The position numbers and the translations under genes are program-made. This document shows positions 8,147 to 36,797 of a DNA stretch of 64,000 nt, one piece after another; the first letter of the stretch is position 1; every line of letters begins with the position of its first letter. The DNA lies in the NCBI GenBank assembly GCA_016180525.1, contig JACPBB010000002.1:48824-112823 (forward strand), read 5' to 3'. Origin of the DNA: Parcubacteria group bacterium (GTDB taxonomy: Bacteria; Patescibacteriota; Minisyncoccia; Phycocordibacterales; UBA2135). The notes beneath the pieces were generated by a model. It was not told the origin of the DNA. It saw nothing but the letters and a program-made list of their open reading frames with translations, and made no database searches.

Positions 8147-8347
8147 TTTTGGTGCGCAGGAGAGGAATTTCACTACTCGTCGCTCCGCCAGTTGGCGGAG
8201 CTCCTGCGCTTTCAAACCACTCGGTTTGAAGAATCCTCCACGGGAAAACTACAGTTTTCCCGGCCCCTTTCGTGTTCAAATCCTCACCGTGCTCAAAAAC
8301 ATCACAACAAAAAAACCGTACTGTTTGTGAGTACGGTTTTTTTGTTT
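8147..8347 (-). mobile_element. tRNA-Leu-anchored small structured element bounded by a 20 bp duplicate of the tRNA 3' end
   Basis: TTTTGGTGCGCAGGAGAGGA at 8147-8166 and 8345-8364; internal core homologous to 33971-34129. Confidence 0.65.
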
Positions 8348-8434
8348 TGGTGCGCAGGAGAGGATTTGAACCTCCACGACCTTGCGGCCACTAGCCCCTC
8401 AAGCTAGTGCGTCTACCAGTTTCGCCACCTGCGC
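8348..8434 (-). tRNA. tRNA-Leu(GAG)
   Basis: GCGCAGG...CCTGCGC-A-CCA, anticodon arm CTAGC-TTGAGGG-GCTAG, long variable arm. Confidence 0.95.
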
Positions 8435-33747: not shown

Positions 33748-33897
33748 TCTGTATATTATACAATAAACAGACGTGGTGTATTCAAATAATAAAGGTTCCT
33801 CGCTCTAAGAGCATTAGATATTGAACCTATATTTCGCCTTCGCTCGGACGAAGTGAAAATTCTTATTTTTACTTCGCTCCTCGTTAGCCGAAATAAC

Positions 33898-33969
33898 GCG
33901 CCCATCGTTCAACGGATAGGACATAAGATTGCGGATCTTAAAATCGAGGTTCGATTCCTCGTGGGCGCA
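33898..33969 (+). tRNA. tRNA-Arg(GCG)
   Basis: GCGCCCA...TGGGCGC-A, anticodon arm TAAGA-TTGCGGA-TCTTA. Confidence 0.92.
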
Positions 33970-33970
33970 T

Positions 33971-34129
33971 TAGCACGAAGTGATAATCTTCCGCGAGGAA
34001 TTGAATGCGAGGGGGGTCGGAGAAACTGTAGTTTCCCCGTTGAGGAAGGCAACGAGGAGCACGGCGATGAGTGTTAGAAAACCGTGGGTTTCCAAGGAGT
34101 AAGATAGCGAAGCGTCCTCGTGGGCGCAT
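33971..34129 (+). mobile_element. tRNA-Arg-anchored small structured element bounded by a 15 bp duplicate of the tRNA 3' end
   Basis: TCCTCGTGGGCGCAT at 33956-33970 and 34115-34129; core homologous to the element behind tRNA-Leu. Confidence 0.65.
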
Positions 34130-34135
34130 CACCGT

Positions 34136-34176
34136 AAAACAGCCCCCTCCGGTGTACACCGGAGGGGGCTGTTTTT
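34136..34176. terminator. Bidirectional terminator
   Basis: AAAACAGCCCCCTCCGGTG-TA-CACCGGAGGGGGCTGTTTTT. Confidence 0.85.
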
Positions 34177-36491: not shown

Positions 36492-36539
36492 GCGACTGTA
36501 TTTTTCCAACCCTGTTAAATGATTTTAAATTTTTTGTCT

Positions 36540-36797
36540 ATGTGGTATTACGTATATATACTTCGTTCATTAAAGGATAAAAAATTTTATATAGGATATA
36601 CTACTAATTTAAAATCACGATTTGAGGCACATTCAAAAGGGCATGTAGAGTCAACAAAGAAAAGAGGTCAACTAAAAATTGTATATTCCGAAGCGTGCCT
36701 CAATAAAAAAGACGCGTTGCATCGTGAAAAATATTTTAAAACACATCATGGTAAACAATTTTTATATAAACGCCTCAAATCGTATTTAACAGGGTGA
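36540..36797 (+). CDS. GIY-YIG nuclease family protein
   Basis: YVYIL.S.....YIG.T.NL..R...H..G...STK....YSE......A..RE. Confidence 0.9.
   Translation: MWYYVYILRSLKDKKFYIGYTTNLKSRFEAHSKGHVESTKKRGQLKIVYSEACLNKKDALHREKYFKTHHGKQFLYKRLKSYLTG

Follow-up and report, generated by a model that had tools for sequence, protein, structure and literature searches.

Short folded elements with site-matched antisense segments adjoin the ends of tRNA and other genes in Patescibacteria

Behind the tRNA-Arg(GCG) gene of the 64,000-nucleotide stretch of DNA analysed here (the window) lies one copy of an element family that is real and apparently unpublished: no description of it was found in the literature searched, which was covered in part and with subscription journals and bioRxiv supplements outside that coverage. 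The copies combine a folded core with an antisense segment matched to the gene that they adjoin and with a second copy of the end of that gene. We lean, by a small measure, towards reading the copies as insertion elements that are non-autonomous and fold as single strands, probably of DNA, each using its antisense copy as a base-pairing guide and depending on an enzyme provided in trans.

Results

Anatomy of the copy at tRNA-Arg

An earlier note on this DNA had described a segment downstream of the tRNA gene (33991-34005) able to pair with that tRNA with two G-U pairs, as well as a 15-bp duplicate of the tRNA 3′ end 159 bp downstream. Both descriptions proved accurate. The pairing, with the T-loop, T-stem and acceptor strand, contains two G-T pairs and can be extended to 17 consecutive pairs between 33990-34006 and tRNA positions 53-69, four of them G-T; the duplicate is exact, with 33956-33970 being identical to 34115-34129. 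Among 1000 dinucleotide shuffles of the downstream 165 nt none reached 17 pairs, by a thin margin (maximum of 16), and the longest duplicate was 9 bp long, compared with the 15 bp observed. The tRNA together with the element has a folding z of -5.2, and both the antisense segment and A* (Table 1) are somewhat degenerate in this copy.

Table 1. Positions of the features at the tRNA-Arg locus and of related sites (window coordinates unless a contig is named).
Feature	Position	Strand	Remarks
tRNA-Arg(GCG), target gene, intact	33898-33969	+	
Segment A (tRNA positions 53-59)	33949-33955	+	7 nt of target, antisense-paired, without exact duplicate
B, proximal gene-end copy (tRNA position 60 onward)	33956-33970	+	putative left element end
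Spacer, 19 nt	33971-33989	+	small hairpin with GAA triloop at 33974-33982
Antisense segment (putative guide)	33990-34006	+	complement of 33949-33965, 4 G-T pairs
7-nt linker and conserved G-rich core start	34007-34017	+	
Core hairpin 1	34018-34039	+	family-wide compensatory changes
Joiner, purine-rich and conserved, plus variable optional hairpin	34040-34075	+	
Core hairpin 2	34076-34093	+	family-wide compensatory changes
A*, mismatched copy of segment A	34099-34105	+	degenerate in the Arg copy
Optional 9-nt insert at junction	34106-34114	+	GAA-triloop mini-hairpin inside; present in 22/60 copies
Distal copy of tRNA 3′ end	34115-34129	+	putative resident chromosomal end
Terminator-like hairpin 3′ of distal copy	34136-34175	+	
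Second family copy, at tRNA-Leu(GAG)	8147-8354	-	approximate limits
GIY-YIG site	G000:C1:254880-255077		
GIY-YIG site	G000:C1:362886-363095		
GIY-YIG site	36519-36797		

Alignment of the Arg and Leu elements is significant (local score of 54, against a shuffle mean of 16.7 and a maximum of 35 in 2000 shuffles). The claim that the two match in order and core sequence stands for a stretch of about 52 nt common to both at 81%; the 3′ halves align poorly. Local misassembly, named in the earlier note as a possible source of the duplicates, is not supported, as the X1 and X2 runs both gave contigs that read through the element without a differing letter. Since these runs may be the assembly's own source, the occurrence of the same anatomy in 145 other copies is the stronger argument.

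Two further observations concern this locus. An unrelated hairpin repeat of about 70 bp adjoins the tRNA gene upstream (33822-33896); some 8-10 more copies are present in the genome at 73-88% identity, and similar stretches occur in other run contigs. The two invariant purine-rich strands that flank hairpin 1 (window 34007-34049) may resemble the mismatch-zippered loops in DNA aptamers that bind adenine nucleotides.

Size and distribution of the family

From 160 fetched loci and the present genome (G000, 0.95 Mb) we extracted 146 distinct core copies, and the anatomy proposed from the two window copies (conserved core, target-matched antisense segment and duplicate) recurs across them. Of these, 75 lie at most 140 nt behind a same-strand tRNA gene, 31 tRNA types being represented. 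A profile search of G000 yielded six full copies and one partial copy, located downstream of tRNA-Arg, Leu, Ser and Glu, at the close of a 2.2-kb cargo region that follows tRNA-Gln, and at the 5′ end of a glycosyltransferase gene. In core hairpins 1 and 2, compensatory changes were found at 5/14 pairs (34 aligned copies).

The exact core pattern, which misses divergent copies, is present in 18/41 close relatives and, in the survey of the phylum that the earlier note had suggested, in 31/401 genomes with 1-9 matches each, a patchy and clumped distribution. Among the 80 named records listed with the core, 74 bear Patescibacteria-type labels, five are unlabelled bacteria and one is labelled Gammaproteobacteria; with the small genome size, this points to a Patescibacteria host. 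Viral contigs gave 0 exact core-pattern matches, and phage and plasmid collections no blastn match. The statement that no named family fits agrees with the Rfam search, in which no family matched the element: apart from tRNAs, the window contains no match at gathering score, and at E≤5 only weak terminator-type matches appear.

Several variants were noticed. Two subfamilies carry the core with a fixed 5′ motif in place of the target-matched antisense segment, the first comprising L045, L060, L063, L067, L095, L099, L112, L119, L143 and L158 and the second L051, L076, L087, L124, L128, L153 and L157. Tandem or nested copies occupy one tRNA at L059, L068, L078, L082 and L097. A sister family with a different core is represented by L165 (G000:C5:127994-128215), where tRNA-Lys(CTT) is followed by a short antisense T-loop segment and a 20-bp distal duplicate. 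In congener G001, tRNA-Arg(GCG) (L004 1553-1720) lacks the core; it is followed by a structured trailer of another kind, in which a short segment antisense to the T-arm lies some 110 bp downstream.

Geometry and target matching

The general layout is segment A followed by B, a spacer, an antisense segment complementary to A and the start of B, the core, A* and B again; one junction thus lies between A and B and the other between A* and B. At tRNA genes, A corresponds to the 7 nt of positions 53-59 and B begins at position 60. A T-arm could be located for 81 copies, and 63 of these pair well. In these 63 copies, which were preselected for pairing, pairing sets in sharply, from 0.22 at tRNA position 52 to 0.95 at position 53, values at far positions being lowered by ungapped scoring. 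In 52/63 of them a distance of 7 nt separates the end of the antisense segment from the core, and the distal duplicate starts exactly at position 60 in 40/52. When all 81 copies were taken without selection, pairing at variable positions was of 0.64, against a null of 0.33 obtained by permuting the antisense segments (maximum of 0.41 in 5000).

Copies taken from other lineages, in genomes rich in the element (the second sample), gave a similar picture. There, 34/38 copies pair at at least 8 of 9 positions, and at tmRNA the antisense segment matches the variant T-loop of that gene. The spacing is 10 in 23 copies and the duplicate starts at 56-60. The junction offsets vary among subfamilies (spacing of 7 vs 10; duplicate start at 56-60).

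Segment A* starts T-loop-like in 40/52 well-paired copies and carries GA at tRNA positions 55-56 in 30/40; in most copies it is complementary to the antisense segment. It also tracks its host at tRNA positions 57 and 59 (p=0.0002 each). Because A* follows the host and carries GA, the antisense segment should be able to pair with both junctions, perfectly with that between A and B, and with a tandem G-A mismatch with that between A* and B. A modelled circle of the Arg copy (one base short) predicted no helix between A* and the antisense segment with DNA parameters.

Targets other than tRNA genes

The association is not restricted to tRNA genes, as had been assumed earlier. The same layout was found at tmRNA 3′ ends and at protein genes, where the targets are 3′ ends on the coding strand (rpsI, rpmG, lepA) and 5′ ends on the non-coding strand (typA, fusA, murD, RNase H, dnaX and family-4 glycosyltransferases); rpmG and dnaX are names that we presume from the translations. 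A geometry of 6-8 nt is kept at protein-gene targets without T-loop similarity. Segment A has different sequences at tRNA, tmRNA and protein-gene targets, with no fixed 4-5-nt target common to the copies, and the junction flanks share no sequence across target classes. In about 30 copies of the family no antisense target is recognisable. Five copies (L094, L114, L126, L142, L146) target one unannotated hairpin of about 60 nt upstream of motifs that we take to be DnaA-box-like; it is possibly a conserved non-coding RNA near the origin.

These data bear on the idea that the elements are remnants of, or minimal, tyrosine-integrase islands, or that they exploit Xer, their two tRNA ends being attL and attR. 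According to the available sections of PMC4383910, islands in tRNA and tmRNA genes (the Islander principle) have their crossover in the T-loop/T-stem, restore the target and leave the displaced 3′ fragment at the far end. The family likewise splits and restores tRNA and tmRNA targets, with a displaced 3′ fragment present, and one G000 copy closes the cargo region behind tRNA-Gln. However, a single core sits at 31 tRNA types and at unrelated protein genes on either strand without a common site sequence, the element is of about 160 bp with no integrase inside or adjacent, and its antisense segment and A* would be left unexplained. We regard this explanation as largely contradicted and very improbable.

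At protein genes the two end copies can be compared as codons. Between proximal and distal copies we counted 30 synonymous vs 8 non-synonymous differences in 137 codons from 12 loci, which are not independent and exclude lepA and RNase H, where no distal copy is recognisable; the differences include multi-base serine swaps. As the differences are mostly synonymous, both copies have been under coding selection, each having served as the gene end. Such a pattern would follow if one copy travels with the element and the other is resident, or from excision and return of the element. Congeners G113 and G327 have the same gene directly downstream of the distal stub and different DNA before the stub, which is consistent with the distal copy being the resident end.

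The folding strand

Folding is clearly strand-specific. The element strand has 88 mini-hairpins with GNA triloops and the opposite strand 10 (shuffle maximum of 28), and hairpin 1 contains 12 G-T vs 2 A-C pairs. GNRA tetraloops show a bias in the same direction (35 vs 8, and in the second sample 64 vs 1). As to whether that strand is DNA or RNA, the loops do not all point the same way. The GNA-triloop motif is extraordinarily stable in DNA and the RNA counterpart of a related tetraloop is much weaker, as stated in the available part of PMC13037366. In the 45 copies of the second sample, tetraloops of the GNRA type outnumber triloops (64 vs 11). Among the loops of hairpin 1, 32 are GNRA vs 9 GNYA, and this pattern is RNA-like. 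On balance we lean modestly towards DNA.

The earlier note had taken G-U-compatible mismatches as a sign of selection at the RNA level. Family-wide counts do not bear this out: the antisense helix has 14 G-T vs 6 A-C mismatches in 52 copies (p=0.12), and 16 vs 18 in 63 copies when a slightly longer window is used. The argument is therefore weak, G-T also being compatible with single-stranded DNA.

An active form made of RNA is an alternative. It would be a structured, possibly catalytic molecule with the antisense segment as internal guide, spreading by reverse splicing or reverse transcription, or else it would switch tRNA maturation between the proximal and the distal 3′ end. The alternative cloverleaf suggested in the earlier note is indeed the predicted minimum-energy RNA fold of both window copies; to this are added the strand bias of the GNRA loops and the G-T excess of hairpin 1. 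Group I introns have a guide that spans both sides of the junction, and the antisense segment covers both sides as well. On the other hand, at least 8 copies are antisense to the protein gene that they interrupt and still keep their triloops on the element strand (5 vs 0 in 10 copies). Loops of the UNCG type number just 2, a near absence, and the distal tRNA copy is decayed or missing in 11/63. Splicing is not needed, because the gene is already restored in the DNA. The element, unlike group I introns and other known structured RNAs, matches no curated RNA family in Rfam, and G000 has no match to a reverse transcriptase domain. We consider this alternative unlikely.

Copy history and retargeting

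The similarity between cores is independent of the target: nearest-neighbour cores are at the same tRNA type in 1/56 cases (null of 1.6), and 17/19 core pairs with at least 90% identity, reaching up to 98.8%, are at different tRNAs. Conversion between cores could contribute to this likeness. In several copies the exact duplicate is 30-79 bp long and takes in intergenic DNA of the locus, and some antisense arms are the continuation of the tRNA's own terminator stem (e.g., L088, L041). From both features we infer that guides are made on the spot through fold-back copying. One copy is common to congeners G048 and G075 by vertical descent, and at the corresponding tRNA-rpsT locus congener G001 carries different DNA.

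The same footprints could be produced without any dedicated enzyme if, during replication, a nascent strand folded back at a terminator, jumped to another core via T-loop microhomology and returned, with gene conversion homogenising the cores. Long local duplicates, near-identical cores within one genome and the absence of a partner gene would all fit such template switching. Against it stand the 6-8-nt geometry at protein-gene targets devoid of T-loop similarity and the conservation of A* as a specifically mismatched antisense partner. It is further disfavoured because distal coding copies stay synonymous, unlike a dead duplicate, and we judge it rather improbable.

Search for an enzyme, an excised form and empty sites

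Of 144 neighbouring ORFs, 129 were scanned (the 15 short ones left out mostly overlap the element or a tRNA). They include no integrase, transposase or reverse transcriptase, and neither they nor G000 contain an IS110 DEDD recombinase. G000 also gave no Y1, reverse transcriptase or serine recombinase match; its tyrosine recombinase matches, one full and one at a contig edge, are both away from the element. No coding gene was found inside the element and no autonomous long version within 2.5 kb of the copies. Y1 transposase was considered as a partner and rejected, as its presence does not track the element (14/18 vs 13/23; 9/22 vs 12/22); the core was found at 0/20 Y1 loci, a number small enough for a rare cognate copy to escape.

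Small GIY-YIG nucleases occur in 44/44 genomes, with a median of 6.5 in element-positive genomes vs 3 (p=0.001, ignoring kinship). Because their genes are at tRNA 5′ ends, outside the element, and within 2.5 kb of 1/81 unselected copies, we treat the association as a lead only. Nine such genes or fragments (ten matches) are present in G000; two of them are located within duplicated 5′ ends of tRNA genes, along with hairpin inserts. Behind tRNA-Gln(CTG), locus L161 (G000:C1:285000-287470) comprises, in this order, a 428-aa ORF without Pfam match, a broken GIY-YIG gene, a tRNA 3′ stub, a 121-aa ORF and a family element with a decayed proximal copy, and it looks like stacked cassettes.

In the contigs of five runs no joint skips the Arg or the Leu element; as rare variants are lost in contigs, this does not show that such joints are absent. 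One joint listed in the run contigs was rejected, because the letters between its two sides are foreign and it seems to come from another organism. A metagenome scan with the distal flank for the empty allele gave 0 matches, and the congeners have other inserts or contig ends at the site, with no precise empty site. By GC skew, 30/44 tRNA copies and 3/7 antisense copies have positive orientation; compared with tRNA genes themselves, the copies show no clear further bias to the lagging strand, a result counted against a mobile element. That reading is also weakened by the lack of an enzyme, an excised form or an exact empty site among the results, by the fold of the modelled circle, by the RNA-like loops, by the junction offsets that vary among subfamilies and by the copy that G048 and G075 inherited vertically.

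Discussion

For the guided, single-strand insertion element that we slightly favour speak the sharp onset and regular spacing of the antisense pairing, the host tracking of the antisense segment and of A*, the likeness of cores at unrelated targets, the recurrence of the layout in protein genes on either strand and the mostly synonymous end copies. The long local duplicates, the arms that continue a terminator, the tandem copies, the triloop bias, the patchy distribution and the other DNA at the G001 locus are further points in its favour. Such an element would work in three steps. The antisense segment would first pair with either junction and so align both ends for strand transfer; cuts at both junctions would release a single-stranded circle of about 160 nt and rejoin the gene, and for insertion a target strand would displace A*. 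The B carried by the element would then restore the gene, which under this mechanism is why only gene termini are occupied. Lastly, a new guide would arise as a fold-back copy of the target's own strand, from the terminator hairpin or from microhomology, and would be joined to the core.

By analogy, the closest counterpart of such an element would be the peel-and-paste transposition of IS200/IS605, joined to the way in which tDNA islands restore their target gene; it would be a member of neither. In IS608 (IS200/IS605), a guide 5′ of the hairpin pairs with the cleavage site or the target, the folded ends are strand-specific and the left and right sites are similar, not identical (available sections of PMC5934647 and PMC5027513); its guide is of 4-5 nt, and targeting with 12/17 nt was reached only through engineering, as far as the same sections of PMC5934647 report. 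With IS200/IS605 and their ORF-less derivatives the family has in common the strand-specific hairpin ends, seen here as covarying hairpins with loop and G-T asymmetry. It differs in that the guide is of 9-20 or more nt and covers both sides of the junction, changes from site to site and serves no fixed 4-5-nt target; the element also brings a second copy of the gene end, and neither a TnpA gene nor an association with one was found.

Other systems are further away. The single-strand hairpin recombination of CTX phage, IMEX and integron attC sites uses fixed recombinase-binding arms (11-bp XerC/XerD arms) according to the available part of PMC6744903. Here, by contrast, the stem sequence is that of the target itself, with no fixed arms across target classes. 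REP/REPIN sequences with their RAYT are short, multi-copy, lineage-restricted hairpin repeats without ORF, and so is the present family. Its copies, unlike those, do not flank Y1 genes (0/20 loci) and have site-matched antisense and direct copies at gene termini. In IS110 bridge-RNA recombination the choice of target is programmable by base pairing, as proposed here; the family differs in having its guide in cis beside the site and a long gene-end duplicate, and no IS110 recombinase was found in G000 or the neighbouring ORFs.

More tentatively, and with less than even confidence, the family might be a natural programmable insertion system, in which a folded core of about 100 nt writes its own guide of 10-20 nt by copying the target backwards and, by means of this guide, excises and reinserts at any gene end, sometimes with cargo. 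The enzyme would be an unnamed Patescibacteria protein, or the core itself would be catalytic.

Long base-pair-guided targeting has been engineered in IS608 (PMC5934647, available sections), and the family described here appears to have arrived at it in nature, across dozens of unrelated targets, and also to make its own guides. Its anatomy yields exact, testable junctions. If confirmed, this would be a new mode of programmable DNA insertion, the enzyme of which would be of interest for genome editing. It would also account for the gene-end stubs and hairpins found around tRNAs and essential genes of Patescibacteria, and would give one route by which these small genomes gain cargo genes.
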